Part shown: positions 1 through 49,628 of the stretch, piece after piece
How the letters are laid out: each line of letters opens with the position of its first letter
How positions within the stretch are numbered: position 1 is the stretch's first letter
IMG/VR virus record: IMGVR_UViG_3300050343_000256
Span: 1-64,000 of that record
Source: a virus
Direction: 5' to 3' (one strand)
Length of the DNA stretch: 64,000 nt
Notes under the pieces: generated by a model
Databases searched by the model: none
Told to the model about the DNA's origin: nothing
What the model saw: only the letters and a program-made list of their open reading frames with translations
Translations under genes and position numbers: made by a program

Positions 1-59
1 AACACCCCCTCACAGCTCGAATACCGGTCAAACAAAAAAAGAAGTAGGCACTAACAGCA

Positions 60-392
60 ACCGCAGCCGCGACCGCGTTCTCGCTACGCGAGTGAACGCA
101 GTGTCGCTGTGATGCATGTGATAACCGAGGAGTACACGAGTAAGCGACGCGATGAGCGACGCGGTTACCGCGACTGTGTTCGCGCAATTCGCTGCCGCGA
201 TTCCGCTCTCACTCGTGTCGCTGGTTACCTAAGTAAGCGACGCGATCCGCGCAAGCGACGCGTTCATTCGTACAACGATCAGTATTACTTATGCTTCGGC
301 TGCATCCACGCGCCCTCAACAGACACCCCGCACGCTCGCGAATGCGCGATCCGCGGTCCACCACCCCCGCGATGACGCGATACGCGCCCGCC
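60..392. repeat. CG-rich low-complexity repeat tract (AGCGACGCG units), likely non-coding terminal region
   Basis: (TA)AGCGACGCG(AT) near 141, 155, 234 and 253, plus many CGCG/CGCGA; overlapping ORFs are Arg-rich and look spurious. Confidence 0.6.
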
Positions 393-513
393 AAATCTCC
401 TGTTAGTCACTTGACGTTACTGTTCCGTCACGTATCCGTGCCTACCACACCCACCAAATATCATCGCGATTCACATGATTACGGGTGTACACATACAACA
501 GTGCATTCAAATC

Positions 514-699
514 ATGGACTCCGCTTTCTGGTTCGAGATCACTTGGTTCCAATCAACACAGCTCGACATTCACGGCGGACAATACGCACTACTGCTCAGC
601 AGGGATGAATGCCGAGTGGACGACTGCAAAGAGGTGCTGTCCGGTCCCGAGACAGCTCCACTCCATTACGTCTACTCCGACGGCGAAATTCCCTTCTAA
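514..699 (+). CDS. hypothetical early protein
   Basis: ATG 8 nt after box 1; ends just before a terminator hairpin. Confidence 0.6.
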   Translation: MDSAFWFEITWFQSTQLDIHGGQYALLLSRDECRVDDCKEVLSGPETAPLHYVYSDGEIPF

Positions 700-761
700 A
701 TCACACGAGCCCTGGCGAAAGCTGGGGCTTTTTTATTGACCACTTACAACAGTGCATTCAA

Positions 762-1079
762 ATGTCTACAGAGGTTTACACGCTCTTCAAGTACGACACC
801 TGTTGGGATCCAAACCAGCTCGAGTTGATCCCGGTCGGACCGCCAGGCCCTGCGCAGTCAGTGACTTTCAAAATCCTGACCGGCACAGGCGTCGACTGGA
901 ATGGCAAGTCCTTCCCTAGCTGGGACGATGCCTACATCACCTGGACTGGCGACGGCGGTCTGCCAATAGCCGACTTGGAAGATGCCAATTGCTGCGACGC
1001 AGATCGCGTTTCAGCCCGAGACATCTACCGACAGCTTGAAACTCTTGGCTACCAGCGACATCTCCTTGGATCGCACTAA
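762..1079 (+). CDS. hypothetical early protein (MSTEVY...)
   Basis: ATG after box 2; the longer ORF-track start runs through the terminator. Confidence 0.7.
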   Translation: MSTEVYTLFKYDTCWDPNQLELIPVGPPGPAQSVTFKILTGTGVDWNGKSFPSWDDAYITWTGDGGLPIADLEDANCCDADRVSARDIYRQLETLGYQRHLLGSH

Positions 1080-1155
1080 TGACGTACGCCCGCACATCCC
1101 CTCAGTGACTCCGGTTGCTGGGGGGATTTTTAGTGCCCATATTCAACTGTGCATC

Positions 1156-1383
1156 ATGAATTCATTCACCTTTATCTGCGCAACTGTAGTGGCCTCAGCC
1201 ACAGTCACCTGGGGAATCATCCCCGCTATCAATAACAGGCTTCACGCAGATACTGCCAAACAATGCATCACTCACGCATGGCCTGCTGAAAAGCATGATC
1301 TCCGCGTGGACTTCTGCAGAAGCTACGGCTTCAAGACAGAGCCCAAGCAATACATCACCACCAACGCGATCAAAGCGTTCTGA
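1156..1383 (+). CDS. small membrane-anchored protein, paralog A
   Basis: N-terminal hydrophobic helix; C-x3-AW...C-x3-G pattern. Confidence 0.7.
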   Translation: MNSFTFICATVVASATVTWGIIPAINNRLHADTAKQCITHAWPAEKHDLRVDFCRSYGFKTEPKQYITTNAIKAF

Positions 1384-1386
1384 CTA

Positions 1387-1478
1387 CCCACCAAATCCCG
1401 GCGGGGCTTCGCCCCGAACAGCCGGGCTCCGAGACGGCCTGTTTTCTATTAGCCCTGCCAAAAGGTGGGGCTTTTTTA
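1387..1478 (+). repeat. about 90-bp structured element plus terminator, copy 1
   Basis: Near-identical to 1726-1817; differs at 2 nt in the terminator loop. Confidence 0.9.
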
Positions 1479-1504
1479 GTGCCCACATTCAACTGTGCAT
1501 TCAA

Positions 1505-1699
1505 ATGAAGAATCATTGGCCATCCATCACCTTGCTTGCAATGTTTGCGTTACCGGCTGCGTTGTTTGCTTTCATCCCTCACCAAATAGCTTGGCTCGAA
1601 GAAGCCACAGCTGCCGAGTGTAAAGCCAACGCCTGGACAGAAGCCAAAGCTGCTGCCACAAAGGCGTGGTGTATTCATAACGGTTACTCCGTTGAGTGA
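1505..1699 (+). CDS. small membrane-anchored protein, paralog B
   Basis: ATAAECKANAW...WCIHNGY aligns with DTAKQCITHAW...FCRSYGF of 1156-1383. Confidence 0.7.
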   Translation: MKNHWPSITLLAMFALPAALFAFIPHQIAWLEEATAAECKANAWTEAKAAATKAWCIHNGYSVE

Positions 1700-1725
1700 T
1701 CAACCCACCCAACATTCTCTATCAA

Positions 1726-1817
1726 CCCACCAAATCCCGGCGGGGCTTCGCCCCGAACAGCCGGGCTCCGAGACGGCCTGTTTTCTATTAGCCCTGCCGC
1801 AAGGTGGGGCTTTTTTA
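1726..1817 (+). repeat. about 90-bp structured element plus terminator, copy 2
   Basis: Direct repeat of 1387-1478. Confidence 0.9.
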
Positions 1818-1841
1818 TTGACCATTTACAACGGTACATTC

Positions 1842-2273
1842 ATGGGAACTCGTCTCTATCCCAAGACCACTGACCCGAGCAAGCTCGAAAGATTGGCTTG
1901 CGTCTCATCTGGGACCGCCAAGCTAGTTCCTTTTAAAGAGGAGTTGGAAAAGTACTTCTTGAAGATGCGCGAAGGCGCCACCTCTACCGATGAAGACGGT
2001 ATTGAATGGCCGGTCGACACTGAATACGAGTTTTTCAAGCTGTTCTCCGGCTCCAATGTTGATACCTACGAAGGCTTCAAACTTTTTGGCTGGGGCAAGT
2101 TCGACCTCGACCTTGTTCCAAACGACCAGGACCGATACGGCGGTGAGACCACGGACACAGATCTCATGCTCGACATGCTGCTCTCTTCCGGCTGGGATTC
2201 AATGCCTTGGAAGCCAGGGAACCCTGACGTCACCCAGGTGATCCAGCTCTCTGAAGGCTTTTACTGGGTCTAA
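1842..2273 (+). CDS. hypothetical phage protein (MGTRLYP...)
   Basis: ATG 3 nt after box 5; followed by a terminator. Confidence 0.75.
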   Translation: MGTRLYPKTTDPSKLERLACVSSGTAKLVPFKEELEKYFLKMREGATSTDEDGIEWPVDTEYEFFKLFSGSNVDTYEGFKLFGWGKFDLDLVPNDQDRYGGETTDTDLMLDMLLSSGWDSMPWKPGNPDVTQVIQLSEGFYWV

Positions 2274-2367
2274 CCCACCTATCCCCTCATTAGCTCCGGC
2301 TGGTGGGGGGATTTTTAATGCACCACTACAACGGTGCGTTTCAGTTCATTACTTCGCTTGATTACTC

Positions 2368-2859
2368 ATGACCACCAAAACTGACCTCGAAGCACAAGTC
2401 GCTCAACTTCAGGAACAACTGGCTGCTGCCCAGGCTGCAACGCCAGACTCTGCTCCTCGCCTGCCCGGTTTCGCCGGTCGTGTCTGGCTTCCTGAAAATA
2501 TTGACGAGGTTGTAACCAACCAAGATGGAACCACCTGGCAACCCGTCAAATACGGTACAACCAGGAACGGCTCCCGCTATTTCGAATGGAAGGCTCAAGT
2601 CTCTCATTTTGATAAGGAGACCAACAAGCGGATCTACTCCAAGACCCGAATTCCTTTCAAAGCCTGGAACGAACAAGCTAATCAGATCATGAACATGATC
2701 AAAGATGGCACCCGCCTTGTCGACATTACTGCCAACTACCTTCCAGAAGCTTGGTCTTACGAGGGCAAGGTTTACAGCAGGGATTTTTGGCACGTCGTCT
2801 CGGTCGATCCTTTCGTCCGTGATGAAGTAACCGAAGTCCAAGGCGAACTCAACGCTTGA
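2368..2859 (+). CDS. putative SSB-like OB-fold protein
   Basis: IPFKAWNEQANQI...DGTRLVDITA resembles the SSB pattern AW..qA..i...G..V.i. Confidence 0.45.
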   Translation: MTTKTDLEAQVAQLQEQLAAAQAATPDSAPRLPGFAGRVWLPENIDEVVTNQDGTTWQPVKYGTTRNGSRYFEWKAQVSHFDKETNKRIYSKTRIPFKAWNEQANQIMNMIKDGTRLVDITANYLPEAWSYEGKVYSRDFWHVVSVDPFVRDEVTEVQGELNA

Positions 2860-2961
2860 CACATCAGCCCTGCCCTTCACCGGGTGGGGCTTTTTTAGTG
2901 CACCAACACAACGGTGCCACAAACTATTTATCAACCTGTTCACCTTATTAACGTAAATCAA

Positions 2962-3246
2962 ATGACTATTGCCATCCCACAATTGAACATCCAAGACCAG
3001 GCTTACTCTCTCATCGACACACTCAAAGAGATCAACTATCGCAAGCACTATGAGCAAACAATTTCTACCATCTTGCTCATCGCTGCCTGGATAGTTGTCA
3101 TCGCCCAAACCATCTACAAAGGCTGGCAATTCGCCGCCCCTCACATCATCAATGGCGCTCGCCAACTAGCCAACTTCATCGAATCACTTGACGACTCGCC
3201 GCCGCCCATACCACTGATACCGGAGACAGACAAAATCCCCTTTTAG
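2962..3246 (+). CDS. hypothetical membrane protein
   Basis: One transmembrane-like segment; lies between box 7 and a terminator. Confidence 0.6.
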   Translation: MTIAIPQLNIQDQAYSLIDTLKEINYRKHYEQTISTILLIAAWIVVIAQTIYKGWQFAAPHIINGARQLANFIESLDDSPPPIPLIPETDKIPF

Positions 3247-3334
3247 ATCCCAACACTCCCTCTACCCCTGCCCTACCGGGTGGGGGTTTTTTATTGCACC
3301 ACTTCAACGGTGCATTTACTTCGCTAGTTCCTTC

Positions 3335-3523
3335 ATGGCTCTTACACACATCAGTATTCCTCTGTTCGACGCCGCAGTCCAACTCGAGGAGGTCTATACC
3401 GATCACAAGGCTCAAACCTTGACCATCGAGCAAGAAGAGATCCTTGCAGAAGATGCATATCACAAGAGGACAAGCCATGAAAGAAGCTGTGCCCACCTCA
3501 TGGGCAATCAATCAAGCTTCTGA
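3335..3523 (+). CDS. hypothetical protein
   Basis: ORF between box 8 and a terminator. Confidence 0.6.
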   Translation: MALTHISIPLFDAAVQLEEVYTDHKAQTLTIEQEEILAEDAYHKRTSHERSCAHLMGNQSSF

Positions 3524-3618
3524 ATCACGCTCTCCTTACAACGTCGTCTTCTGACGCTTACCCCTGCCGGTACTGCCGGTGGGGGTTTTTTTCGTACAAC
3601 AACTATGCATTACTAACC

Positions 3619-4140
3619 ATGGGAACACGTTCAGCTATCGGCCACGAATTACCGTCCGGCAAGATCAAAGCCGTCTACTGCCACTGGGATGGCTATCCCA
3701 AGCACCATCTGCCAATTCTGATCAAGCACTACAACACGCTCGAGAAAGCAAAGGCACTTATCAAGCCAGGCTCCATGTCCACACTTAGGACCAGAGAAAC
3801 CTGGAACTGCGGCCCTCGACTCAAATACAACGAGACCTATCTCCAGGACCCTGAAGGACTACAGATGTTTCAAGGCGACAGGGAGCCGCAACCCCTGTAC
3901 CACCACGAACGTGGAGATGGTCCCTGGAATGCAACCGACTCCGACTACGCAGATCCACCACATGTGAACGCATCACTCAAGGCTGCCCGTAAATGGTGGG
4001 CTGACTCTTGCTGCGAGCACATGTACATCTTCGAGATCAACGTCGGCTGGATTCACTACGACCTGAACGAACCTGAGCCCAAGCACAAGTTCACCAAGGT
4101 CAGTCAACTTCTATGTAACCAAATAGATCAAAGCCCATAG
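3619..4140 (+). CDS. conserved phage early protein (MGTRS.IG...YCHWDGYP family)
   Basis: Recognisable widespread phage motif of unknown function. Confidence 0.75.
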   Translation: MGTRSAIGHELPSGKIKAVYCHWDGYPKHHLPILIKHYNTLEKAKALIKPGSMSTLRTRETWNCGPRLKYNETYLQDPEGLQMFQGDREPQPLYHHERGDGPWNATDSDYADPPHVNASLKAARKWWADSCCEHMYIFEINVGWIHYDLNEPEPKHKFTKVSQLLCNQIDQSP

Positions 4141-4147
4141 ACTCACC

Positions 4148-4354
4148 TCAGGTTGGTAAGTCCAGGCAATAACCAGACATCCCGTACTCAGGCTCACTGT
4201 TCTCTGGCGCCATCTCATTAAAGTCAGAAACGAGTGACCTGGGTATCAACTTATCCCTACGGAATGCCCTACGCATTTCGTTCAAGTTGAAAGGCGACAG
4301 CCCATCACGGATATCTAATTCCAACTCCGTCCCGGCCAGTCTGAAATCATCCAT
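4148..4354 (-). CDS. hypothetical protein with N-terminal RLAG
   Basis: MDDFRLAG; overlaps the end of 4347-4550. Confidence 0.6.
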   Translation of the reverse strand: MDDFRLAGTELELDIRDGLSPFNLNEMRRAFRRDKLIPRSLVSDFNEMAPENSEPEYGMSGYCLDLPT

Positions 4355-4550
4355 CGATCAATTTCTCAAGCTTGGCCTTGCCAACAATTGTCTCTCCCTG
4401 CTGGTAGTAAAAGCTGTCGGTCTTCCCGGCAGCCTTTAATGCCTTGCAAATGCTTACCCATTTATCAGCTTCCGTATCAACCCAAAGACCCTTATGTAAT
4501 TCATCAGGACTACTCAAGAAATCATCAGTCATCAGGCTGAACAATCTCAT
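4347..4550 (-). CDS. small cyanophage hypothetical protein
   Basis: W..I..AL..AGKTDSFYY pattern. Confidence 0.6.
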   Translation of the reverse strand: MRLFSLMTDDFLSSPDELHKGLWVDTEADKWVSICKALKAAGKTDSFYYQQGETIVGKAKLEKLIDG

Positions 4551-4673
4551 GTTCTTCGCACAATCTAATGCACTCCTTCACAAGCGCATAGTACGAACTA
4601 TCAGTTTTATGACCTTCTTCCAGAGTCAATACAACCCTGGAATACAAGTCACATTCCCACTGCTGGGGAGTAG

Positions 4674-5261
4674 TCATGAAGGCAATACTTGGTCGCGCTC
4701 CTGGTCAACTGCCTGGCCCTGGCTCAGGAAATTCATCAGGTCAATCAAGCCTGCTCCACTTGCAGTTACGCCTAACGAGACACCACTAACAGCGCCAACC
4801 CTGGCGATGTCTCCTTTTGTGCCTGGATCAGCAAGAGCTCCTGCTATTTGCGCTTTTGCCTGAGAAATACCTTCCCTAGTCATAATGCCTGGGCCCTCAG
4901 CACGAGCAATGGTTTCACCCATTTGCTGAAGCTGCCCACTATTCATTTGACCCATGCGCCCTAGCAAGTCCTTGGCTGCGACTTTGGACAAGCTTTCTTG
5001 ATTCAAAGGAGGCCGACCACTGGGGATGCCCATTGACTGAAAAAGGTCACGAGTGTTGTTCGCACTATCACCTCTCCTAAATGACTCTCTACGAATAATA
5101 TCTGCAGCTGCTAAAGCGCGATCGTTCTGACTACGACCCATCGTTGCTTTAAGCCGCCCTGCTTTTTCTTTGTCAGCAACCCCACCGTGCTTTGCGGCCT
5201 CATCCGCAAAATAGTTAATCATTCTCCCTCTATTGCTAGGGATTAAATCTTGTGGTCGCAC
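4674..5261 (-). CDS. hypothetical protein, possibly virion-associated
   Basis: 195-aa ORF; TAGAAT upstream on the - strand near 5290. Confidence 0.65.
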   Translation of the reverse strand: MRPQDLIPSNRGRMINYFADEAAKHGGVADKEKAGRLKATMGRSQNDRALAAADIIRRESFRRGDSANNTRDLFQSMGIPSGRPPLNQESLSKVAAKDLLGRMGQMNSGQLQQMGETIARAEGPGIMTREGISQAKAQIAGALADPGTKGDIARVGAVSGVSLGVTASGAGLIDLMNFLSQGQAVDQERDQVLPS

Positions 5262-5308
5262 GACTTAAATGAGCATTTTCTGTGTTCATTCTAGGTCGTG
5301 TTTTTTTA

Positions 5309-5328
5309 TGCCCCTCTTCAACAGTGCG
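5309..5328 (+). promoter_or_regulatory. CAAC box copy 10
   Basis: TGCCCC-TCTT-CAAC-AGTGCG after a T-tract. Confidence 0.8.
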
Positions 5329-5359
5329 TTTTAGAGGGTTTCACTTCGCTTAATGATCC

Positions 5360-5698
5360 ATGAGCTTTAAATTGCCACGTATTTGGCGCTTTCAATGCAG
5401 GTACTACAACGATCCATCTGATTTCAACAACGTCACGTTCGCTTACGTCGACGAAGACCATCTTGAAAGCGCAATTCAAGTTGGCGTTAAATCAGATCAC
5501 ATTGTCCACCAATTCGGAGAAGACAACAAAGACGACTCGTTCATCGACGAGAAAACGGGTACTACCCACTACGGCAAGTCCCACCCACTAGGCACAGTCA
5601 GCCCTCAAAGGGTGTTTGCAATCAAGAAACGCAAAGAGCGTCAAGAAGCTGAAAAGCTTGCGCATAACGCCGACATTGCTCGGCTGACCAGCACCTAA
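5360..5698 (+). CDS. hypothetical protein
   Basis: ORF after box 10, followed by a hairpin at about 5706-5736. Confidence 0.7.
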   Translation: MSFKLPRIWRFQCRYYNDPSDFNNVTFAYVDEDHLESAIQVGVKSDHIVHQFGEDNKDDSFIDEKTGTTHYGKSHPLGTVSPQRVFAIKKRKERQEAEKLAHNADIARLTST

Positions 5699-7738
5699 CC
5701 CTCTCGGCCCCGGCAGGCGTCATGCTTGCTGGGGCTTGCGCGTCTCCTATTTTCGTGCATCATATGCATGACTGGTCACACGACATGAATGCTAATCCTG
5801 AGATTTACTGCCTTCGCTCTCTCCGCCATGCAGCGGCTGAGCTCCTGGCGCTCATCGAGGCAGAAGACCCCAGCCAAGCATCCACTGGAGACAGCGAAAA
5901 AGCACGACTCATCAGTCAATTCATCCATGACGCAGACGAACGGCTTCAACTCAAGTAACCGCTACCTTCCTCAACTCTATGGCACTGACACCACTCGACT
6001 CCAGGTCACAGACAGAAAGACTGGACTTATCTGTTTGTATAAAACCAAGGATGTCTATCAACAAATTGAGATTATCAAGCATCTCAGGGATCAAAAGCCT
6101 CTGGACTTGGTCCCGTACTGCCTTATCAATCCGCAAGGCACCATCCAATCAACGCCTCGTCGACGAGCTGATTAACCACGTAAAAGTCAGACAACCGCTG
6201 CAAATTCGGTTGCATGCTCATGACGACTACCCGCAAAGAATATCTTTTGACTGCTTCGTCGATCAAAAGATTCGGGTCGTTGAACGCATGCACAAGTTTG
6301 GTGGCAATGCTTGTAAAAAGCTTGCCGCTTTCATGTTGGCTGCCGATGACACAAACCTTGAGGCCCTTATCGACTCCAAAGTTATCTTCGAGAATCTTGT
6401 CTCTAAGTACCTAGACGGTGGGATCTTCGATCGTGGAACCTGACTTCATACTCTGCGAAACGCCTAACAAATACTATTGCTTAACTCCCTTGTCGAACTT
6501 CGGCAAGGAATTAATCAAGCAATTTGAAGGCTATCCAACCCTAGGCTCCGCTCTGCTTCTCAACCAGGAGCAGAGCTTTTTAGTCAATGGACTAATTAAA
6601 CAGCTAGGGCACTCAGTCGCACAAAGAAGTTATCACCATCAGCCGATCTCAACTGACATGCCTGCTGTCAAACCTTCAGCTGCACCAACAGTTGTAAAAG
6701 ACACGCGGTACAAGTCAAGAACGCGCCACTTCACAAGCTACAGCGACAACTTCTTCCCAAACCAAAACGGATCAACAAAATGTTTATCAGACAAAGAATT
6801 ATGTGTAATCCAATCGCTTGAAAACTACCAAGTCGCTAACCCAAGGCTGATTACAGCCTCCCTTGACTCCTTTCAACTGACACCTACGAATGATTATCCC
6901 ATCAACTGCTCACACAACACAGGCTCGCCGCACACCACCAAGATCACAAGAGAAAAGATCAACTAAAAGCAAACGACCTTGCAACAGGTCAAAATCGTAA
7001 GCGAGCCTGGGCGATCCATTAAAGACTGATGGACCGGTGACTGGTATTTCTTCCGCGTAGATCACGGTCAAAGGAATGCAAGGGCAATGGCAATTAACTG
7101 CAGGAGAGGAGCAGATATCTTGGGTTCTAGAGCCATGGAATGCAATGTGCAACTTCTGCAGAAGGTTTCACTTCAACTTCATCAAAGGCGCGGTGCAAGT
7201 TGAGAATGGCTGGGCTCCAGCGCTACGTTCTTCGACAAGGATTCTTAATCCTAGAAGAGCCCGAGCCTGAGGAAGAACCCATGACTTGGTCCCAACCGGG
7301 GCAGGAAGTTCCGGTTGTCGTGCAACCCCAAACACCTAACCAAATCGTGGCTCAGGCATCAGAGCACATGATCAACAGTTGGCTGGCAGTTCGCCAGACA
7401 TATCCAAGAGTTCGCAGGTATTACAGGACTTCGATGACATCGCATTCACGTGGGAAGTCAGTTAAGGGCGCAACTGATCTCTGTCAATCGCAACTCATGA
7501 CATCAAACATCACGCATCAATCACCATCCATCTACCCAGAAGATTATCCAGGCAATGAATGGTACGACGCTGAAATCGCTTACTTAAAAAGTAAACGACC
7601 TGATCCTGACGATCTCGAGGACTCAGACGATGGGCTGTAAGCACCTAACAGTTTGAGTGGCTCGGATCTTTAACTTCCGGGCCTTTTCCTTTTCAGCTTT
7701 AAGCCGAATCATCATGTCTAAATTAATTGCTCGCATGC

Positions 7739-7846
7739 TCAGCCCACCCACCGAGAGTACGCCACTCCTCGGTACACAAAGGTCACTTCACGCAGAACAC
7801 CAGTTCCTGACTGGCGACCAGAAGCTTGCCACTTACGTGTCGACAT
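7739..7846 (-). CDS. DUF4278-like microprotein
   Basis: FVYRGVAY motif. Confidence 0.5.
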   Translation of the reverse strand: MSTRKWQASGRQSGTGVLREVTFVYRGVAYSRWVG

Positions 7847-7943
7847 CTGAAGTCTCTCAAACAGCAACGCCCCCGTCGTATGGCGCTGATGGTTGCGGCT
7901 ATTAAGCCCGACGATTTCTACAACTCTAACAACATTAATTCCA

Positions 7944-8240
7944 ATGATTGCCAAGCTTCATCCCAGGTTCACGATGCTCACAGACGCAAGTCACAAATGG
8001 GTCAAAGTCAGGAAGTCATACCTAGAAGACTTAATTGGCAATGACTGGCGCAAGTACTTCACTTGCTCTAGCTACGAAAGAACTGACTTTGTCTACCTCG
8101 AGGAACAGAAAGACACGGTTACCTTTTTAAAGGAATGCCGCAAGAAAGACATCCACCCTGAGTTTGTCTGCGCCGAACACAAAACAGATCGACCCTCAAA
8201 GATTCGCGGCTACGAACCCTTGGCTCCCATGGATTTATGA
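7944..8240 (+). CDS. conserved phage hypothetical protein (D.sH.W.kV...YLEE.D family)
   Basis: TDASHKWVKV...VYLEEQKD. Confidence 0.7.
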   Translation: MIAKLHPRFTMLTDASHKWVKVRKSYLEDLIGNDWRKYFTCSSYERTDFVYLEEQKDTVTFLKECRKKDIHPEFVCAEHKTDRPSKIRGYEPLAPMDL

Positions 8241-8818
8241 CTTCATCACAAACAGACCAGTCGTTTGTCAAAGATCTATTTGACACATTATTTGGGACCG
8301 TCGATACAGAAATGATCGACCTGTCCGATGACGACACGGCTGGCATTGAAGCTATTGACCTCGAAAAACTAGTCGTAACTGACATGACTGCATCCACTAA
8401 AGACAAGATCTCTGACGAATCAATCAGAGCAGCTCAACGCAAATTTGCCAAGGTTTACCAAGCCTTCTTCGAACAGTGGGAAACCCAGCAAGAACGTAGT
8501 GACTACGCAGACAGCGCTGGTGGTAAAGGCTGGATCGGTTCTCATTCCTGCAGTACTGCCAATGAGCACAGTTCCGTTGTTGCTTGGAGCTCAGACAGCG
8601 ACAAGATCTACACCATGGGACCCAAGTTCTACGTCGCCTTGGCGCGGTGGAACAGAAAAGCAGAGAAAGATGGATTCACTCCAATCAGATTCTCAAACTT
8701 ACACACGACTCCTTACATGCACACAAACTCAGAACGACGCCCCCTTCCCAAGGCAAGCGACTTCTGGAGTGCATTTCACGGTATCGGCGAACCACTTAGC
8801 TTCGCAATCACGTCATGA
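8237..8818 (+). CDS. hypothetical protein
   Basis: 193-aa ORF with ATGA overlaps at both ends. Confidence 0.7.
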   Translation: MTSSQTDQSFVKDLFDTLFGTVDTEMIDLSDDDTAGIEAIDLEKLVVTDMTASTKDKISDESIRAAQRKFAKVYQAFFEQWETQQERSDYADSAGGKGWIGSHSCSTANEHSSVVAWSSDSDKIYTMGPKFYVALARWNRKAEKDGFTPIRFSNLHTTPYMHTNSERRPLPKASDFWSAFHGIGEPLSFAITS

Positions 8819-9459
8819 ACCACTTAACTAAGACAATAACAATCAAGATCAAATCAAATGAACTTGAGCGAATTGATAAGGCAGCAGTAGAGCGCGGAAT
8901 TAGCCGTAGCGCTTTTATGCGTGAATGCTGCTTTAAGACCATAGAAGGGCCTCTCGCGGATAGCAACACTATTCGTTCAATTCTTCAGCGACTTGATCAC
9001 CTTGACACCCATCTACTAGCTAATGAGCTACACCTACACCACACTCCCATCACTCAGCCTGCTGAATTCAAAGTCATCAAGCTCAAGCGCAGTGGTCCCA
9101 GCCCGGTCAATCTGTTTCTTCCTGGGAAGCAGGTAAATGCCTGGCTGACGGTGGGACAAGCAGCGCGATCTCAATCTCTACAAACTTCTATGACTAACTA
9201 CACCACACCCATCACCAGCCTCAACGGCACAAGCCGTTCTGACTTGCATGAAGAATGGCTATCTGCCAGGACACTTCTGTCCCAGGCGCTAGAAGAACTG
9301 AAAGCAGCTACTTGTCATCCAAGAGACTTTCAGTTCCAAGAAAGTGGAGCTTGGGACAAAGCACAGCAAGAGAAGTCAACAGTTCTTGCATACGCAGAAG
9401 ACGCCTTGGATCTTGCGTCCGCATGGGTCGTTGCGACTCAACCTTCTAAGGAGAACTAA
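8815..9459 (+). CDS. ribbon-helix-helix (CopG-like) N-terminus in frame with a second phage domain; internal start at 9190 likely
   Basis: ITIKIKSNELERIDKAAVERGISRSAFMR; later MTNYTTPITSLNGTS...HPRDF. Confidence 0.6.
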   Translation: MNHLTKTITIKIKSNELERIDKAAVERGISRSAFMRECCFKTIEGPLADSNTIRSILQRLDHLDTHLLANELHLHHTPITQPAEFKVIKLKRSGPSPVNLFLPGKQVNAWLTVGQAARSQSLQTSMTNYTTPITSLNGTSRSDLHEEWLSARTLLSQALEELKAATCHPRDFQFQESGAWDKAQQEKSTVLAYAEDALDLASAWVVATQPSKEN

Positions 9460-10177
9460 TGAAACACTTCAAAGTCGCTTACGAGCAACGCCTCTGGATT
9501 AACGGTCACGGCTACTCAACCAGCAGGCACTTCCAAGACATCTACGCCAAAGACATGGACCGCGCCCTGGGCAAGTGGTCTAACCAACAACTCGACAATC
9601 AATCGCTGCTCTGCATTACCGAACAATCATGAACATTCATCTCATCGTCTCCGAGGCTGAGCAAATGGCCATCGTCAATGCTCTTGCTTTCTACAACGAC
9701 ATGCACATGTCGGATACAAACCGACTACTCGCTAAAGGTCACGCATTCCCCGACCTAAATCAATGGCGCACGGTCTTCACAGAAGACAATCGCGGCAACG
9801 ACTGCGAAGGCCCGATCGATCAGCTTGCTACCAAAATCGCTAACTGCGCATGACACTACATGGACTTGTCATCATTCTGAACACACACCTTATCCAACCA
9901 ACCAATGACCCTCTCAACCAACTTCATCGTTAAACTCACAGCAACAAAAGCTTCCCACAAACGTATTGGCTACGTCAACAACTCTGGTGACATAACTGAT
10001 CATATTTTTGAAGCAAGGATTTTTACTTTTAAAGAGCAAGCGCAAGCCATTGCTACTGCCTACTCAAGCAAGTCAAGCAAAGTTTCAGCTCGAGTTATCA
10101 AAGCACCTTCAGTTGGCAAGACACTTGAAAGTTTCAGTCGACACTTAGACAAATGCATTTCCACATCCAACTAACCC

Positions 10178-10513
10178 ATGGAATTCACAGATCAAGACGC
10201 TCTTGACGCGATTGCACGTCTGATGAATGGCAATGAATGGGACTCAGAACTGGTCTCCCAAATTGCTGAAATCATTCATCACACCGGTCGCCCTCTTAAA
10301 GAGCCCGTGTATTTCCACAACACCACTCTTATCCAAGACATCGAGGGCTACCTCGCAGACAACCACACCCACCTATCCGAGCAACAGATCAAAGATGTTG
10401 CCCCCACCATTCAAGGGAAGCTTTCCTATGAAGGCATCTACACCCAGATCGATTCTCTTGTCTTGTATCTTCTGGGTAACTTAGGAGATAGCGAACAGAC
10501 TCCTCCTGAATAA
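10178..10513 (+). CDS. hypothetical phage protein
   Basis: Part of a tightly packed run of small + strand ORFs (9459-10739). Confidence 0.65.
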   Translation: MEFTDQDALDAIARLMNGNEWDSELVSQIAEIIHHTGRPLKEPVYFHNTTLIQDIEGYLADNHTHLSEQQIKDVAPTIQGKLSYEGIYTQIDSLVLYLLGNLGDSEQTPPE

Positions 10514-10735
10514 CTCTGAAGCTTGCGATGCCGCCGCAATCCCGATGTACGACTTACTCGACATCGCCTGTGCTGCAATGGCTGCACTTGAATTAGACCG
10601 TATCAGCGATAAAGAACATGCTTTTAAACATGTAATGAATCGCGTTTACGGCTACATGACTCCTGCCGCCAGGGCGGACTACCAAGAGTGGGTAGAACGC
10701 AAAGGCTGGAAAGAGAAAGAGCAAATCATCCTGCC

Positions 10736-11275
10736 TTAAACGCAGCGAAGCGTGGCCTTTAAATACCACGTTGTTTTGTTGGCGTCAGCCATCAACTCGG
10801 CGAGGTAGTTGGCCACGTCCAAGGCTTTCATTTCGATTGCCTCTGGCTCCAGCTCACAGATCATCTCGCACAAATCACAAAGATTTGCGTGATAGGTCAT
10901 CAGCATGTCCCTGCCGTCATGGCTGGTGACATTGTTGAAACACGCAGGCATCTCATCCTTCAGACCACATGCACACATCGGCATGTAAAAGTCCATCGCC
11001 CGAACAAACTCAGCGATTGTGTCGAACTGTTCCTGGTGAGCTTCATACCTCTCCTTTAGGAATCCATGCACAGCAATGAAGTTTGAACCCTCATAATTCA
11101 GGTGAATCAAGTGTGACTGAGTCTGCATCTCTTTCAAGAATGAAGCCAGTCGCACTAGATCCTGAACCAATGAGGAACAAGGGACCATAGCTTTCTCGTG
11201 AGGCACCACCATTACGCCATCTAAGGCAGTCGCTGGCATGTCAGCGTTATGCATCACAAGAGAATCTCTCAACAC
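10736..11275 (-). CDS. dps: Dps/ferritin-like protein
   Basis: HLNYEGSNFIAVHGFL..RYE....FDTIAEFVRAM ferroxidase-centre pattern; W near the C-terminus. Confidence 0.85.
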   Translation of the reverse strand: MLRDSLVMHNADMPATALDGVMVVPHEKAMVPCSSLVQDLVRLASFLKEMQTQSHLIHLNYEGSNFIAVHGFLKERYEAHQEQFDTIAEFVRAMDFYMPMCACGLKDEMPACFNNVTSHDGRDMLMTYHANLCDLCEMICELEPEAIEMKALDVANYLAELMADANKTTWYLKATLRCV

Positions 11276-11505
11276 AGTTTAGTAACTACAGCTTCAGGCA
11301 AGCACCTCAACATCGCATGAAACGGGAGTCACATTTTTGAGCTCTCTATAAATCTCTATTTTGAGCTTTTGGTCTATGGACTCAGTACGAATCAAGCGCC
11401 TGACTACGGCTTGGACGGAGCTACATTCCATCTCGTAGGAAGCTTGCATAGGCGCAGGTGCCAGCAAAAGCCCTGCAATTAGAAACACTGTCATCTGTAA
11501 ATATT

Positions 11506-11554
11506 AGCTCTGCCGAAAGGTGGAGCTTTTTTTATGCACTTTTTCAACAGTGCA
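11506..11554 (+). promoter_or_regulatory. terminator hairpin plus CAAC box copy 11
   Basis: AGCTCTGCC-GAAA-GGTGGAGCT, T-tract, then TGCACT-TTTT-CAAC-AGTGCA with perfect arms. Confidence 0.85.
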
Positions 11555-11577
11555 TTTTCAATTGATTCCTTCGTTTA

Positions 11578-12243
11578 ATGACTGATTCATCCGTGCTTGA
11601 TTTCATCCCGCAAAACTCGCCCCTCAGAACACTTAATTCTCCGAAAAGCGCATTTGGCTCAAAGCTAATACAAGTAGTCCAACCTGTCATGATCTTTTTG
11701 AGCTTTGAGAGCAGGTTCTACAAAGCCGAAAAGGTCTTCAACAAACACTCAAAAACAAGAGAGTATATCCCAAATGTTCACGGAAAAATCGAAGCAGTAA
11801 CCATAGTCAACCCAAAAAACACACAGCGGGTCAATGTTCAGGGTTCCTGCCTAAACGAAGAGACAAACGAGAAGGAACGCTGGATTCTCTCCTTTTCAAC
11901 TGTGAAGAAGCAACAAACCTACCTGTCTCTTCTGCCAAAGCTAAAAGTCGTTAACTTGCCTGAACAGTCGCTCACAATTCAGCCTCGGCTTGGAAACAGA
12001 GCAACGTTCATGGATGTATTTATCAATGGGGATCCAAGGCAAAGTGTTTACGCAAAGTCGATTGACTGCAGTGATAACGCACTCAACGAGACAGTTAACG
12101 CAATTAGGGAGCAGCTGGGTCTCCAACCGGAGTACCCAGAATGGATGAATCTAAGGACGGATCTTTCCCAGACTCAATCAGTCCCAACCAACTGCGAGAC
12201 CTACTCGGAAGAGCCGGAATCCAGCTCCCAGTCTCAGATCTGA
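11578..12243 (+). CDS. hypothetical protein
   Basis: 221-aa ORF after box 11. Confidence 0.7.
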   Translation: MTDSSVLDFIPQNSPLRTLNSPKSAFGSKLIQVVQPVMIFLSFESRFYKAEKVFNKHSKTREYIPNVHGKIEAVTIVNPKNTQRVNVQGSCLNEETNEKERWILSFSTVKKQQTYLSLLPKLKVVNLPEQSLTIQPRLGNRATFMDVFINGDPRQSVYAKSIDCSDNALNETVNAIREQLGLQPEYPEWMNLRTDLSQTQSVPTNCETYSEEPESSSQSQI

Positions 12244-12704
12244 TCCCCAGGCTGAGCTTCAAAGACAGCAAGCTCGATAGTGGCGGTATCTGCGATTTGC
12301 AGTACGTCATTATCCAGCTCATTCAAAACTCAGAGGACGGGGTTGAGTTCATTCAGCTCTTGACCCTGGCTCTCTACATGAGTGAGCTGTGTTTCACAGC
12401 CATGGAGGGCTCCATCGACGAAGCCAACGAGCTGTACGAAGGAGCAGACAAACTGAGCGTCATCAAAGAGCTTGTAAGCCTTCGGGACTCATTTAAGCGT
12501 TCATTGAGCGAACTCTCGACGATCCATCTAACCCTGATGGCATCAGCAACGTTCGATCGGATCAACCGACTACGCCCATCACTAGGCAGCGCAGCAGGAC
12601 AGAAGGACTTCCATTCCCATCTGCTTCTCAGCGATGCATTACTCGAATCACTAAAACAAACCCGCAAAGACGCGGAACCATTTCTCGACGCAAACCAACC
12701 ATGA
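12141..12704 (+). CDS. hypothetical helical protein
   Basis: 187-aa ORF with ATGA overlap to the next gene. Confidence 0.6.
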   Translation: MDESKDGSFPDSISPNQLRDLLGRAGIQLPVSDLIPRLSFKDSKLDSGGICDLQYVIIQLIQNSEDGVEFIQLLTLALYMSELCFTAMEGSIDEANELYEGADKLSVIKELVSLRDSFKRSLSELSTIHLTLMASATFDRINRLRPSLGSAAGQKDFHSHLLLSDALLESLKQTRKDAEPFLDANQP

Positions 12705-13693
12705 CGATCACCCTCGACCGCAAACTCTTCAAAGGCAACGCAGCTCTTGTTGCTCCTGGCTCAAGCACGACCGAAATCCTTGAATCGGTAGATGCCAACT
12801 TCAACGTCAACGCCGTATCCCCCGAGTTTGGAGGTCGCACCTACAACGACTACAAGCTGTGGCTTCGTTCAGATAACGGCGACTCACTCGGCCAATTCGG
12901 CAACAGAAGGCAGCCGCAAGACCCTCAGGTCATTGGGGACTTCTTCCAAAGCTTCTGCGACAACTCTGAAAAACGCATCTCCTTAGATGTTGTTGGCTCG
13001 ATCAATAAGGGCAAGACCCTTTATATGGCAAGCCGATTGGCTGGTGACACCACACAGCTAAACGATCCGACAGACCTCAGAGGTATGGCGATCAAACGCG
13101 AGGACAGCGAGCACTACATCGCTCGAGCCGATCGCACTGAACACTGGCTCATGCTTCTCGTCCACTACGGCGAAAGCCTCTCAACCAAAGCGGTTGTGTT
13201 CAGCAATGAGCTGGTCTGCACCAATGGCATGGCTCTCAAGACCGTCGACAAATCAATGGTGATTCCGCACCGGTCCTTAGCTGACGGCTTCCAAGTCGAG
13301 CAGATCCTCAACCAAGGCCTCCGCAGCAGCCAGGCCTACATGCTGATGAAAAACCGCTTTCAAAACGAACCACTTCAAATTGCTGATGGCTGCAGTCTCA
13401 TTCGAGAATTCCACGACGATCCAGAAGGCGATAGCCAGGTCGTCAAGAACCTCGAGCGCATCTACCGCTATGGATTAATCGGCGGCGATCTACCAGAACG
13501 CACCAACAACTTCTGGCGTCTTGCAAATGCACACACCCAATACACTTCGCACTCCTATGTGAGCAAGGCTGACCCAGGCAAGACTCTTCTGTCTCAACTG
13601 GAAGGCAGCAAAGCAAGAAGCAACAGGGATTGGATGCAGTTCCTTGAGTCTCAATTCACAGCTGGCGCCGACAGAACCTTAGTCCTCGCCTGA
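12701..13693 (+). CDS. DUF932-family phage/plasmid protein
   Basis: LRSDNG..LG....R.P; LVCTNGM; N.WRL.NA.TQY.SH. Confidence 0.8.
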   Translation: MTITLDRKLFKGNAALVAPGSSTTEILESVDANFNVNAVSPEFGGRTYNDYKLWLRSDNGDSLGQFGNRRQPQDPQVIGDFFQSFCDNSEKRISLDVVGSINKGKTLYMASRLAGDTTQLNDPTDLRGMAIKREDSEHYIARADRTEHWLMLLVHYGESLSTKAVVFSNELVCTNGMALKTVDKSMVIPHRSLADGFQVEQILNQGLRSSQAYMLMKNRFQNEPLQIADGCSLIREFHDDPEGDSQVVKNLERIYRYGLIGGDLPERTNNFWRLANAHTQYTSHSYVSKADPGKTLLSQLEGSKARSNRDWMQFLESQFTAGADRTLVLA

Positions 13694-13722
13694 AGCATCA
13701 GGCAAATAAAACAGAAAACACC

Positions 13723-13755
13723 GCATGAGGGGGTTGCGCACCCCCTTTTTCATGT
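13723..13755 (+). terminator. intrinsic terminator
   Basis: AGGGGGT-loop-ACCCCCT followed by a T-run. Confidence 0.6.
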
Positions 13756-13900
13756 GCAAAATGCGTGCTCAGTCTTTCGACATCATCCTTGTGCTTCCCA
13801 CCAGCCATGCAACGTATGACCAGCAGAAACAGTGAACGCCTACTTGGTGTGTCAGTCCTGATTGCCTCCCTCACAGCATTCTTTGTCAGCCCTTGGCCTA

Positions 13901-14302
13901 ATGACCGCATCATTCTTCAACAAAGAGAACGCTCAACTCAGGAGGTGTACTCAATGCGGATCGATGAAGGTGTTCGTAGTCGAATGCAGACACAGTTCGA
14001 TATACGGACTTGACGCAAAAGCGAGACGTCGTCGTCTTAAATGCCAAAAATGCGGCCATCGAAGTACGACAAAAGAAATAAGCAAGGACTTGTTAGATCA
14101 TCTAATTGGATGTCACCGAAATCTTGAAAAGATTAAGGCACTAACACTTGCGCAATCAACCAGCAAAGCGTCGCCCCCCAGGTCGTTATGCAGAAACTGC
14201 ATCTTCAATGAGAACCATAGCTGTTCATTGGAACTGCCTGAGTTCAAAACGAAGGAATCAGCGGATTGCTCCATGCATCAATACATACCAACATCATCAT
14301 GA
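13901..14302 (+). CDS. NrdR-like zinc-ribbon protein
   Basis: CTQCG...VVECR...RRRRLKCQKCGHRSTTKE plus a second Cys cluster; no ATP-cone. Confidence 0.7.
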   Translation: MTASFFNKENAQLRRCTQCGSMKVFVVECRHSSIYGLDAKARRRRLKCQKCGHRSTTKEISKDLLDHLIGCHRNLEKIKALTLAQSTSKASPPRSLCRNCIFNENHSCSLELPEFKTKESADCSMHQYIPTSS

Positions 14303-14379
14303 AAACAAAGACCACTGGTAACAAGTTTCGACCAACACGTCTTCTCGCGAGAACGTGCCATAACTGCAGGGTCAGGCTC

Positions 14380-14460
14380 ATGAAAACACGACCAAGACAA
14401 GCATCTGGAGCTACCAAGTTCTTGGTGTACAGAGGACTGAGGTACGAGTGGAAGCCATGA
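14380..14460 (+). CDS. DUF4278-like microprotein (start uncertain)
   Basis: FLVYRGLRYE. Confidence 0.45.
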   Translation: MKTRPRQASGATKFLVYRGLRYEWKP

Positions 14461-15025
14461 GAAGTCTTCACTACCACAAGAACTCAGAAACGATCATTGC
14501 CGAGGCTAAATTCAAAGCCCTTGAGGCAATACGCAAAAACGATCCGACTCAACTAACTAAACTACAACGTGCTTTTTACGATGCCAATCACCCAGACTCA
14601 AGGTCACCAGTACACGGAACGTGTCGTCAGCACACAAATCAGAGGCCTTCTATCCGCTGCCAGGGAGTACATAAACCAAAAAGATGTAAAACCAACTGAG
14701 CATATAGACCAAACCGATAGAAGCAAAGGAGGCGCACGATGAGCCACGAGACAGTAAGGCTGCAAAAACTAGAAGAGCAAATGAAGTCCTTGGCATACGA
14801 ATTCGCCAACATCAAAGAGACACACAACTACAACGTCAAAAGATATACCTGGATATCAGAGAAGTGCGACAGGATACAGAAAGAGTTTGACGAGCTCAAA
14901 AAAGGTGACAGCAACCTAGAAACCGTTTAACCGCTTTCCACTGAGATAGCTACCCCGCCGAAAGGTGGGGTTTTTAAATGCTGTATTTCATTTACTAAAA
15001 TGGATAAATCTATTCTCTCCAGGCA

Positions 15026-15613
15026 ATGACATTCAGACTAGCTGGAGAAGCTGTTAATACTCCTCGGGAAGTCTTAGTAGCCGCTACTCCAATGGAGATG
15101 AGAGGATTGCTAGATGACTTCACGAATGAAACCATTAAAGGCAATATCTCTCCCGATGCATTTACTAGTGGTTTATTGACACTAGGCGAAGCCGGACACT
15201 CGCCTAATTTTACAGCTCGCCAAATCAAGAATACATTGAAAAATCCTTTAGCAAGAATGTTAGTAGAAAGCCCTGGCATGGCCAAGCAAATGGCAGAAAG
15301 CTCGGTTGGGCTTTTGGATCAGTTTGGAATTAATAGCGACGCAGCTAAAAGCTATATCGGCCCTGGCATGAAATTGCTAACACAAGCAAAGAAAGATGGA
15401 ATCCTTAAGTCAGACGTAACTGACGAAGAGGTTGCTCGGGAGATTCAACGTCCGCTTCACTCAGCCCTCCAAAGCTGGCATAAAGATAATAAAGATAATC
15501 AACAACTACACGACTATCTAGGCTCCGAAAATCCTGGCTGGAATCCGACAGGTCAGGAAGGGCCTATCACGAGGCAAGAAGCCTTGATGATTCCCTTCCT
15601 TAAAGGATATTAA
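15026..15613 (+). CDS. hypothetical protein with N-terminal RLAG
   Basis: MTFRLAG; preceded by a terminator hairpin and TAAAAT rather than a CAAC box. Confidence 0.7.
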   Translation: MTFRLAGEAVNTPREVLVAATPMEMRGLLDDFTNETIKGNISPDAFTSGLLTLGEAGHSPNFTARQIKNTLKNPLARMLVESPGMAKQMAESSVGLLDQFGINSDAAKSYIGPGMKLLTQAKKDGILKSDVTDEEVAREIQRPLHSALQSWHKDNKDNQQLHDYLGSENPGWNPTGQEGPITRQEALMIPFLKGY

Positions 15614-15637
15614 AGGTCTTAATTAATATTTTTTTTA

Positions 15638-15682
15638 ACCCGCCGGAAGGTGGGTTTTTTTGTGCCCTCTTTCAACGGTGCA
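15638..15682 (+). promoter_or_regulatory. terminator hairpin plus CAAC box copy 12
   Basis: AACCCGCC-GGAA-GGTGGGTT, T-tract, then TGCCCT-CTTT-CAAC-GGTGCA. Confidence 0.85.
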
Positions 15683-15684
15683 TT

Positions 15685-16335
15685 TTGAATTCTCATCTCA
15701 AGCTGAACTCTGGTAATCGAAAAACCGGACCAATCGCTGTATCAACAACCAGCTGGGAAAGCTGCAATAGATCCTGTGGAGCATGGGACGATTGCTACGC
15801 ACGCAAGGGCTACTACACGAAGTTGCATGGAGACAAAGTTACCAATGGTGATAGAGGAACATCTCCAGATCACTTCATCAAACAAGTCTCCGCTATCAGA
15901 CCAGGCAATATGTTTCGCCACAACGTCGGTGGCGATTTATGGCATATCAACAATGTCATTGATAAGCCTTTGCTCAACAAATTAATAGCGGCTGTTCAGC
16001 ATTTATCCCATGCCTGGACGTACACACACCACGTACTTACCGCACAAAACCTGCTCTCTATACGGTGGGCGAACAAGTCGGGCTTCACGATCAACGTCTC
16101 TGTTGAATCAGAAGCAATAGCAGCGAAGCGGTTCAAGCAGGGTTTACCCGTGTGCTGCATCACTCAAGGGAAGCCTGAGTCATTTACTAGCCATGGCGTT
16201 CAGTTCAAACGCTGCGAGCACCAGCTTGACGGCGTTCCGAAAGACCAAAGAACACAATGCATTGGCTGCGGTAACGGAAACCCATTGTGCTCGCAAGCCG
16301 ATCGAGATTTTGTAATCGCTTTCGAACTGCACTGA
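15685..16335 (+). CDS. conserved Cys-rich phage protein (Gp88/DUF7227-like)
   Basis: SGNRKTGPIAVSTT...C..SC.....CYA; RHNVGGD; WTYTH; C..C.....C. Confidence 0.7.
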   Translation: MNSHLKLNSGNRKTGPIAVSTTSWESCNRSCGAWDDCYARKGYYTKLHGDKVTNGDRGTSPDHFIKQVSAIRPGNMFRHNVGGDLWHINNVIDKPLLNKLIAAVQHLSHAWTYTHHVLTAQNLLSIRWANKSGFTINVSVESEAIAAKRFKQGLPVCCITQGKPESFTSHGVQFKRCEHQLDGVPKDQRTQCIGCGNGNPLCSQADRDFVIAFELH

Positions 16336-19403: not shown

Positions 19404-19467
19404 TTGTCATGCACGACCAGGCGTACTAAGTTGCAGGACACACAACCACACAACCACACAACCACAC

Positions 19468-48437: not shown

Positions 48438-48438
48438 C

Positions 48439-49563: not shown

Positions 49564-49628
49564 TTAATTAATTAACGCGCAACAATTGAGCGTCGGCTCT
49601 TGACTAAGTTTAGCGGTTACAGGAATTA

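Follow-up and report, generated by a model that had tools for sequence, protein, structure and literature searches.

The left 15.7 kb of a virus genome held in IMG/VR (record IMGVR_UViG_3300050343_000256) was found to contain twelve copies of a short sequence, here called the box, all on the plus strand and each placed shortly before a start codon. The window, that is the whole stretch of DNA analysed, consists of 64,000 nucleotides and corresponds to bases 1–64000 of this 84,978-bp record, which has a 391-bp direct terminal repeat. The box is a real, conserved and lineage-private promoter-like signal fused to terminators, and the combination works like the PeSL elements of T4-type phages with what is probably a new type of promoter. 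The box is probably a promoter confined to this lineage, with its start site inside the box or just after it, and together with the terminator it would form a module of about 80 bp which insulates small ORFans and offers homology for cassette exchange. The boxes, the terminators before them and the box-free block which interrupts the array are listed below.

486–507, plus strand: box 1, the first of the array, with no terminator before it; ATG at 514 (gene 514–699, 61 aa).
707–758, plus strand: terminator (707–730), T tract and box 2 (737–758); ATG at 762, gene 762–1079.
1096–1155, plus strand: terminator (1096–1127) and box 3 (1134–1155); ATG at 1156.
1451–1501, plus strand: terminator (1451–1472) and box 4 (1480–1501), inside a 125-nt repeat; ATG at 1505.
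1790–1840, plus strand: terminator (1790–1811) and box 5 (1819–1840); ATG at 1842.
2281–2340, plus strand: terminator (2281–2312) and box 6 (2319–2340); 29-nt leader with CTTCGCT, ATG at 2368, gene family present in six of seven genomes.
2866–2920, plus strand: terminator (2866–2891) and box 7 (2899–2920); ATG at 2962.
3264–3316, plus strand: terminator (3264–3287) and box 8 (3295–3316), a copy with a perfect 6-bp dyad; ATG at 3335.
3560–3611, plus strand: terminator (3560–3586) and degenerate box 9 (3590–3611); ATG at 3619, phrog_1987 gene.
4148–5261, minus strand: four small genes, box-free, interrupting the array; a −10-like hexamer, TAGAAT, at about 5293–5298 (by eye).
5309–5330, plus strand: box 10, after the minus-strand block, with a T tract only; heads an operon from 5360 to about 10739.
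11506–11556, plus strand: terminator (11506–11527) and box 11 (11535–11556), after minus-strand genes 10736–11494; heads an operon from 11578.
15637–15684, plus strand: terminator (15637–15656) and box 12 (15663–15684); TTG start at 15685, DUF7227 gene.

A scan with the consensus TGCACCNNNNCAACGGTGCA at up to three mismatches returned ten matches, namely nine plus-strand boxes and the minus-strand palindromic self-match of the box at 3295. Shuffled sequences predict 0.67 matches, and none of 100 shuffles reached ten. A 26-nt weight matrix made from the 12 sites gave nothing at or above 10 bits in the rest of the 84,978-bp genome on either strand; the weakest of its own sites is the box at 3590 (16.8 bits), from which the 5′ TG is absent. 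A repeat search recovered the family as 39-nt modules comprising the 3′ arm of the terminator, the T tract and the box, and one larger repeat of 125 nt (1379–1503 versus 1718–1842) is 90% identical. The nine genes between 514 and 4140 have one box each, and eight of them are without a PHROG or Pfam match. No box was present inside the tightly packed operons or in the remaining 69 kb of the genome, and no Rfam family matched any box.

A hairpin and T tract were predicted directly 5′ of ten of the 12 boxes, the exceptions being 486 (neither) and 5309 (T tract only). The distance from the end of the box to the start codon is 2–43 nt. At none of the 12 boxes was a sigma70-like −35/−10 pair present between box and start, and such pairs are depleted in the region 1–17000 as a whole, with four found, none of them at a box, against 14.0 ± 3.9 in shuffles. 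No promoter was predicted in the 485 nt 5′ of the first box. A Shine-Dalgarno-like motif precedes none of the 12 box-led genes, compared with 14 of 43 late genes. A sequence-only reading of this DNA had claimed twelve co-oriented boxes, ten of them behind a hairpin and T tract, all shortly before start codons, with an own box for each gene from 0.5 to 3.6 kb and no sigma70 pair between box and start. The number and orientation were confirmed by the consensus scan and by the weight matrix over the whole genome, and the other points by terminator prediction and by the distances and counts just given.

The array regions of five complete genomes (G001–G005), whose matches are about 69–73% identical to the 741-aa virion protein of this phage, were compared with it, as was a closer relative (contig IMGVR_UViG_3300020453_000595, hereafter r595; 83% identity to the same protein). 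All six relatives contain the box in the same architecture, with each box facing its gene. The seven genomes yielded 67 boxes, equal to 57 distinct 21-mers, every one of which points toward the following gene. The modular expression system of terminator and box before small genes that had been proposed from the sequence alone was supported. A T tract lies 5′ of 58 of 66 boxes. Of 60 boxes, 21 have the nearest ATG at most 8 nt from position 21, and in the others it is 12–57 nt away.

The conserved anatomy of the box is asymmetric and can be written TG-N2-C-N3-TTCA(A/G)C-n-GTGCATT. Over the 57 distinct boxes the conserved positions are T1, G2, C5, T9, T10, C11, A12, C14, G16, T17, G18, C19, A20, T21 and T22, a set in which the filter made T1, G2, C11, A12 and C14 compulsory, while the regular expression, which allowed two mismatches, favoured G16, T17 and C19. 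C5 was counted in 49 of 57 boxes, T9 in 38, T10 in 34, T21 in 52 and T22 in 44. Position 13 is A or G according to the genome (A in this phage, r595 and G003, G in G001, G002, G004 and G005), and positions 3–10 are almost free of G. The conserved block is contiguous, and no conservation extends upstream of the copies which lack a terminator.

The sequence-only reading had presented the box as a 20-bp dyad, and this part of the description stood for three copies only: those at 2319 (z −3.7), 3295 (z −4.3) and 11535 (z −3.7) fold more stably than shuffles, whereas the nine others have z values between −1.5 and +0.8. The innermost pair of the dyad (6:15) forms in seven of 11 own boxes, a value equalled by 6.3% of shuffles. 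In the 57 distinct boxes this pair occurs in 46%, against 42% in shuffles (p 0.20), and pair 4:17 in 39%; neither covariation of the arm pairs nor conservation of the arms was detected in this set. Predicted stems in 24-nt windows have at most eight pairs. As the arms vary without covariation and the left arm in G003 is unrelated to GTGCA, it is the asymmetric block that selection maintains and not the dyad. The dyad or hairpin was accordingly rejected as the functional core, since its arms show neither conservation nor covariation and most copies fold no better than shuffles.

A different kind of stem, formed by sequences flanking the box, was seen in a subset of copies. At the box at 5309 (5311–5340) the flanks CCCTCT and AGAGGG can pair around the constant core, and core-enclosing flanks also surround the orthologous boxes of G001 (L109, reverse complement, 12981), G002 (L110, 9962) and G004 (L106, 4015). 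Similar stems occur at other boxes in G005 (L111, 4107) and in r595 (6862, 7136 and 10389). The enclosing arms vary in sequence between genomes (CCCTCT/AGAGGG, GGCCTCTTA/TAAGGGGCC, GACCTC/GAGGTC and GCGCCCC/GGGGCGC). A stem of this type was better than shuffles (p ≤ 0.05) at five of 66 boxes only, so that it was rejected as a general feature and is regarded as a feature of a subset.

Several lines of evidence favour a promoter. In all 67 boxes the orientation is constant and the position is between terminator and start codon. The boxes at 5309 and 11535 are located where plus-strand transcription must resume after minus-strand blocks, and they have conserved gene families behind them. Boxes are missing from the packed operons and the other 69 kb, conservation is restricted to one contiguous and asymmetric part, and 1–17000 is poor in sigma70-like pairs. 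The sequence-only reading had offered a phage promoter as one of several options, and it is the best fit. The promoter function, the position of the start site, the early timing and the reading of the box by a phage-specified factor or enzyme are inferred.

Two genes argue that the start site cannot lie well downstream of the box and should be at or before its 3′ end. The product of gene 762–1079 lacks any internal Met, and in r595 the homologue shows conservation beginning at Met1, which is 5–6 nt past GTGCAT, with few bases, unequal in length, between GTGCAT and Met1 in the two phages. In G003 there is one ATG immediately after GTGCT (L103:6118). If transcription began at about position 21, the hexamer from −12 to −7 would be T(T/A)CA(A/G)C instead of TAnnnT, with nothing sigma70-like upstream. 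A CRP/NtcA-type site and sigma54, extracytoplasmic function (ECF) and extended −10 promoters were also considered, by eye and against their general consensuses, and were rejected due to a geometry which misfits the short leaders.

The proposed promoter would thus span about 22 bp, consisting of T1 G2 n n C5, a G-poor spacer and T9 T10 C11 A12 (A/G)13 C14 n G16 T17 G18 C19 A20 T21 T22. A start inside or just after its 3′ end would produce leaders of 0–8 nt in about a third of copies and of 12–57 nt in the rest. Since most boxes lie directly behind an intrinsic terminator, the combination would make each small left-end ORFan gene an insulated one-gene unit, with three further boxes heading long operons. 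The repeated module of about 80 bp could also serve as portable homology, and recombination between modules would add, delete or replace cassettes in the same way as PeSLs do in T4-type phages.

A number of points weigh against a promoter with this start site. No transcript 5′ end was observed: a metatranscriptome run (X21) gave three contigs (3664–3695, 5738–5929 and 5900–6438), all of them away from the boxes and ending where the DNA contigs are also broken, and the ends of contigs do not reveal where transcription begins. The TTG located 2 nt past box 12 would be a poor start codon on a near-leaderless mRNA, which hints at a start site further upstream with part of the box transcribed, and the flanks which pair around the core would matter in RNA only if transcription started upstream of the box. 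The open reading frame (ORF) starts were taken by a simple first-ATG rule. The 67 boxes are what was left of 76 hits to the regular expression after nine, with a poor core and no T tract, were dropped by eye. The weight matrix scores its own sites at 16.8–35.7 bits, values which are circular for the sites it was built from, the informative result being the empty remainder. It should also be noted that the search for a reader was negative. No RNA polymerase or sigma factor was named by PHROGs in 114 ORFs, by Pfam in 95 ORFs or by Pfam at E ≤ 5 in 38 early or orphan ORFs. Six-frame searches with PF04542 (Sigma70_r2) and PF00623 (a beta-prime domain) were empty with positive controls, and one with PF00940 (T7-type polymerase) was also empty, but here the control too matched nowhere. 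The signature D[hydrophobic]D[small]D of two-barrel polymerases (those of P23-45, crAss-like phages and YonO) was absent from every frame of at least 40 codons.

With regard to what might read the box, the ORFs of 100 codons or more contain seven D.D.D strings, all outside any polymerase-like context, and the longest ORF runs to 741 codons. A 675-aa orphan protein gave only weak tail-protein-like neighbours at 0.76 in an Atlas look-up, and six unannotated relatives are known for the 182-aa protein encoded in the conserved minus-strand block. The products of the block 4148–5261 and a conserved 64-aa gene (10545–10739) are candidates for reading the box, and the phage also encodes a helix-turn-helix (HTH) protein (23627–24253) and a ribbon-helix-helix (RHH) protein (8815–9459).

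The box was also sought in the genomes of the host family. The core occurs zero to seven times per genome in 61 of these, and the full box pattern gave 46 matches in 43 of 201 genomes, compared with four for the reversed control. The 12 host loci inspected all lacked a T tract and terminator and recurred in the same apparently coding contexts; the phage, by contrast in density, has 12 boxes in 16 kb. The possibility that the box is a copied host sigma-factor regulon was rejected, as no such regulon was found in the sample of 201 genomes and the 12 loci inspected in them. A bolder proposal, put forward tentatively, is that the lineage runs its first genes from a class of promoter which known host sigma factors cannot read and so carries a new specificity factor or polymerase, either injected or made from a few host-type promoters, with the same module acting as a shuffling engine for host-takeover genes.

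The first ORF after each box in the seven genomes was clustered by blastp, and the resulting cassette families were mosaic. Three anchor families, to which the own genes behind 2319, 5309 and 11535 belong, are each present in five or six of the seven genomes, and the family behind 15663 has a match in one relative only. Non-anchor families occur in two to four genomes each and in differing order; that of the own gene behind box 1134, for instance, is first in G001 and G002, third in this phage and later in G004. The sole family of G003 consists of two overlapping ORF calls of its own, and by this test none is common to it and other genomes. Gene 3619–4140 is a promiscuous phage gene, with best relatives at 43% identity and none from the lineage.

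G001 and G002 are 93–97% identical over the array, and G001 has one extra cassette of about 250 bp with a 55-codon ORF; G002 has a single copy of the 79-bp module of terminator and box, and in G001 a copy flanks the extra cassette at either end. Most nucleotide-level matches between this phage and r595 are modules, the single long match (723–1154) also covering gene 762–1079. Joints in environmental DNA were collected from the contigs of three runs at 90% likeness, and as the content between the two sides was mostly unseen they may be replacements or deletions. They connect the end of box 1 to a point just before the stop of gene 1 (504 to 691), the end of box 2 to the stop of gene 5 (758 to 2270), and the ATG of gene 6 to its stop (2370 to 2857); in a fourth (1385 to 1776) the gene 4 cassette was lost within the 125-nt repeat. 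A scan of related phages for changes of gene content at the boxes, which had been suggested from the sequence-only reading, was positive in the mosaic families, the G001/G002 indel and the environmental joints. Homologous recombination between modules would be the economical mechanism of exchange, since the junctions are ordinary direct repeats, no tyrosine integrase was named and the serine recombinase is 22 kb away; a precedent is offered by the PeSLs (Arbiol et al., 2010; PMC2839356).

Other explanations of the box were weighed against a promoter. The box could act in RNA, as a 5′ untranslated or inter-cistronic element (a processing or antitermination signal, or the site of a translational regulator) on upstream transcripts that read through leaky terminators. 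This would be in keeping with leaders that lack a Shine-Dalgarno motif in all 12 cases, the TTG start 2 nt past box 12, the core-including hairpins that three own boxes and some of the relatives' boxes can form, and a second motif, CTTCG(C/T)T, which the longer leaders have in common. It seems unlikely, however, as an upstream plus-strand transcript would have to cross 0.8–1.1 kb of antisense at 5309 and 11535, ten strong terminators in 3.6 kb would need read-through, and no promoter is predicted in the 485 nt before the first box from which such a transcript could come. In addition, a distance between box and start codon that ranges from 0 to 57 nt misfits a translation signal, nine of the 12 copies fold no better than shuffles, the arm pairs do not covary and there is no Rfam match. 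The antitermination or processing signal put forward in the sequence-only reading likewise fails to explain the restart boxes at 5309 and 11535. It is quite unlikely that the box is mainly an operator, in which the partly palindromic TGC.C...G.GCA binds a dimeric regulator such as the HTH or RHH protein, both phage-encoded, with the true promoter elsewhere. The consensus does retain three complementary pairs (1:20, 2:19 and 5:16), and C3 (27 of 57 boxes) can pair with G18, but the best-conserved block, T9-T10-C11-A12-n-C14, has no mirror partner and position 4 is unpaired with T17 in 61% of boxes. Moreover, half-site centres 15 bp apart would fall on opposite faces of the helix for an HTH dimer, all copies have one orientation relative to the gene, and no other promoter element is present. 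An operator role may be superimposed on the promoter, but the weak palindrome is not the core.

The early promoters of coliphage N4 are DNA hairpins with a 5–7 bp stem and 3-nt loop, read by a virion RNA polymerase of about 3,500 aa. The box resembles them as a non-sigma70 signal with a dyad element before early genes near a genome end, this end being gene-poor, early-looking and part of a genome with terminal repeats, and in some copies the stems vary while the core that they surround stays constant. A hairpin promoter of this type, extruded from supercoiled DNA and read by an injected polymerase, is nevertheless very improbable here: there is no giant virion polymerase, the largest ORF having 741 codons, no T7-like polymerase was named by PHROGs or Pfam in the scanned ORFs, the enclosing stems beat shuffles in five of 66 boxes only, and the inner dyad, a possible stem with an 8-nt loop instead of 3 nt, is neither conserved nor selected. 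An attC-like site for site-specific recombination, with cassettes excised and inserted as circles, is the hardest of these to credit. An array of small one-way cassettes which come and go between relatives does resemble an integron, and the sequence-only reading had suggested such a crossover site. Against it, no tyrosine (IntI-type) integrase was named by PHROGs or Pfam in the scanned ORFs (about 45 in 1–24 kb), the sole recombinase is a serine recombinase (37806–39581) 22 kb off on the opposite strand, the arms lack conservation as foldable inverted repeats, the cassettes have terminators of their own, and the junction between G001 and G002 consists of a 79-bp direct repeat of the kind that homologous recombination leaves. 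Early RNase III sites of phage T7, also suggested as an analogue, require an extended RNA duplex of about 20 bp; such a site was rejected here, as no predicted stem exceeds eight pairs and the stability of most copies is no greater than that of shuffles. In its size and contiguity the box does fit the promoters of single-subunit (T7-like) polymerases, with about 20–23 bp of conserved sequence and a start that is here a predicted one, but no such polymerase was matched in the 114 scanned ORFs.

The lineage-private promoter may also be compared with two described systems. PeSLs of phages RB49 and phi1 are short repeated modules of a terminator stem-loop and a promoter placed before small ORFans in a plastic region, and recombination between them accounts for the way in which close relatives differ by insertions, deletions and replacements (Arbiol et al., 2010; PMC2839356). 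The likeness proposed from the sequence-only reading holds for the layout: here too a terminator and promoter-like box precede small ORFans, and the modules mark the boundaries of indels and replacements. The type of promoter differs, in that PeSL promoters are described there as fitting the sigma70 consensus and ending with a Shine-Dalgarno site, with the stem-loop overlapping or sitting within the promoter (PMC2839356), whereas the box is neither sigma70-like nor provided with a Shine-Dalgarno site and its full hairpin and T-tract terminator lies wholly upstream. The module indicates that cassette shuffling in the style of PeSLs needs no sigma70 promoters. In the pre-early and early transcription units of Thermus phage P23-45, private non-sigma70 motifs recur ahead of the first genes at one end of the genome and dedicated terminators are present; the phage encodes two two-barrel RNA polymerases with DxDxD that read these motifs (Chaban et al., 2024; PMC10770324). 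The present array is similar in having a private non-sigma70 motif, with terminators, before the first genes at one end of the genome; it differs in that no DxDxD polymerase was found and the terminators are ordinary intrinsic ones.

If the box is a promoter closed to standard host RNA polymerase, the lineage hides a new way of redirecting or replacing host transcription, and a 22-bp signal with 67 natural variants would be a handle for finding its reader by pull-down, reporters or covariation with phage proteins. The module also flags individually expressed and swappable early ORFans, which are likely candidates for host takeover or anti-defence. The system had been called undescribed in the sequence-only reading, and no description of the box was found in full-text literature searches or in the paper on the lineage discussed below.

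By its large terminase the phage is closest to Synechococcus phage S-EIV1 (50.7% identity), all other GenBank phages being much more distant, and GenBank phages gave no megablast match to the region 1–16000. In S-EIV1 the core is not enriched (five matches versus five in the control), and the upstream regions of its small genes that were examined contain other repeats and no such box. Relatives of the 741-aa virion protein are encoded on at least 125 viral contigs, several of which are complete genomes of about 85 kb, and parts of the window are contained in seawater metagenomes from 17 studies. The phage fits an uncultured marine lineage of cyanophages related to S-EIV1 (Flores-Uribe et al., bioRxiv 10.1101/325100), whose genomes, relatives of S-EIV1 and BAC21E04, are described as marine and terminally redundant, of about 80–85 kb, with S-EIV1 as closest isolate and with a recombinase gene. 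On this description the phage is probably a member of that lineage or of a sister lineage. That paper nowhere uses the word promoter, and the box system is accordingly not described there. Gene 27529–27822 encodes a DUF3288 protein with best cellular relatives in Prochlorococcus and Synechococcus, and the hosts of the lineage are probably members of one of these genera.

Some further signals were observed around the array. A second, pyrimidine-rich motif, (A/C)CTTCG(C/T)T, is common to the longer leaders (2349–2370, 3316–3337, 5343–5350 and 11568–11574) and is found 9 nt 5′ of the ATG in three own copies; many leaders of the relatives (L109, L110, L111, L106 and r595) carry it too, as gcttcgttt or ccttcgctc. 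At 14952–15025 a terminator is followed by one of the four sigma70-like pairs of 1–17000, TTTAAA-17-TAAAAT, instead of a box, and precedes the non-conserved gene 15026–15613; this unit is a cassette with host-type signals inserted just 5′ of box 12. On the minus strand all six relatives retain (by eye) a TAGAAT hexamer before the block 4148–5261, at about 5290–5300 and 10–20 nt from the box, and a GGAG site precedes the first gene of the block. Because of the conserved TAGAAT and the GGAG, this block may be expressed by unmodified host polymerase, and the signal before it resembles a host-type promoter among private ones. The sequence TCTTGCA, considered as a candidate middle-promoter motif, was not enriched (18 versus 15.3). 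A match to the Glutamine-II riboswitch that stays below threshold (27.4 bits against a gathering score of 33, E 0.003) lies on the minus strand at 7864–7916, antisense to plus-strand ORFs, and a short repeat, CACAAC/CACACAAC, was seen at 19440–19467, immediately 5′ of the ATG of gene 19468–19851.

Elsewhere in the genome, a gene-free stretch of about 1.1 kb (window 1–485 and genome 84376–84978) spans the 391-bp terminal repeat and contains repeats of AGTAAGCGACGCGAT at 139–158 and 232–251. The contig depth of the first bin of the window was 2–3 times that of neighbouring bins in three DNA runs. This stretch may function in control, as an origin or in packaging. The large serine recombinase at 37806–39581 (minus strand; phrog_95), which has Recombinase and Zn_ribbon_recom domains, agrees with the proposal that the lineage has lysogenic potential. 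Four tandem paralogous genes of 370–382 aa, all matching phrog_863 (tail fibre assembly) and having Gly-rich stretches, occupy 47319–51890 on the minus strand. The major capsid gene is in pieces, with PHROG matches at 63055–63456 and 63719–64378 and a LAGLIDADG ORF at 64748–65455.

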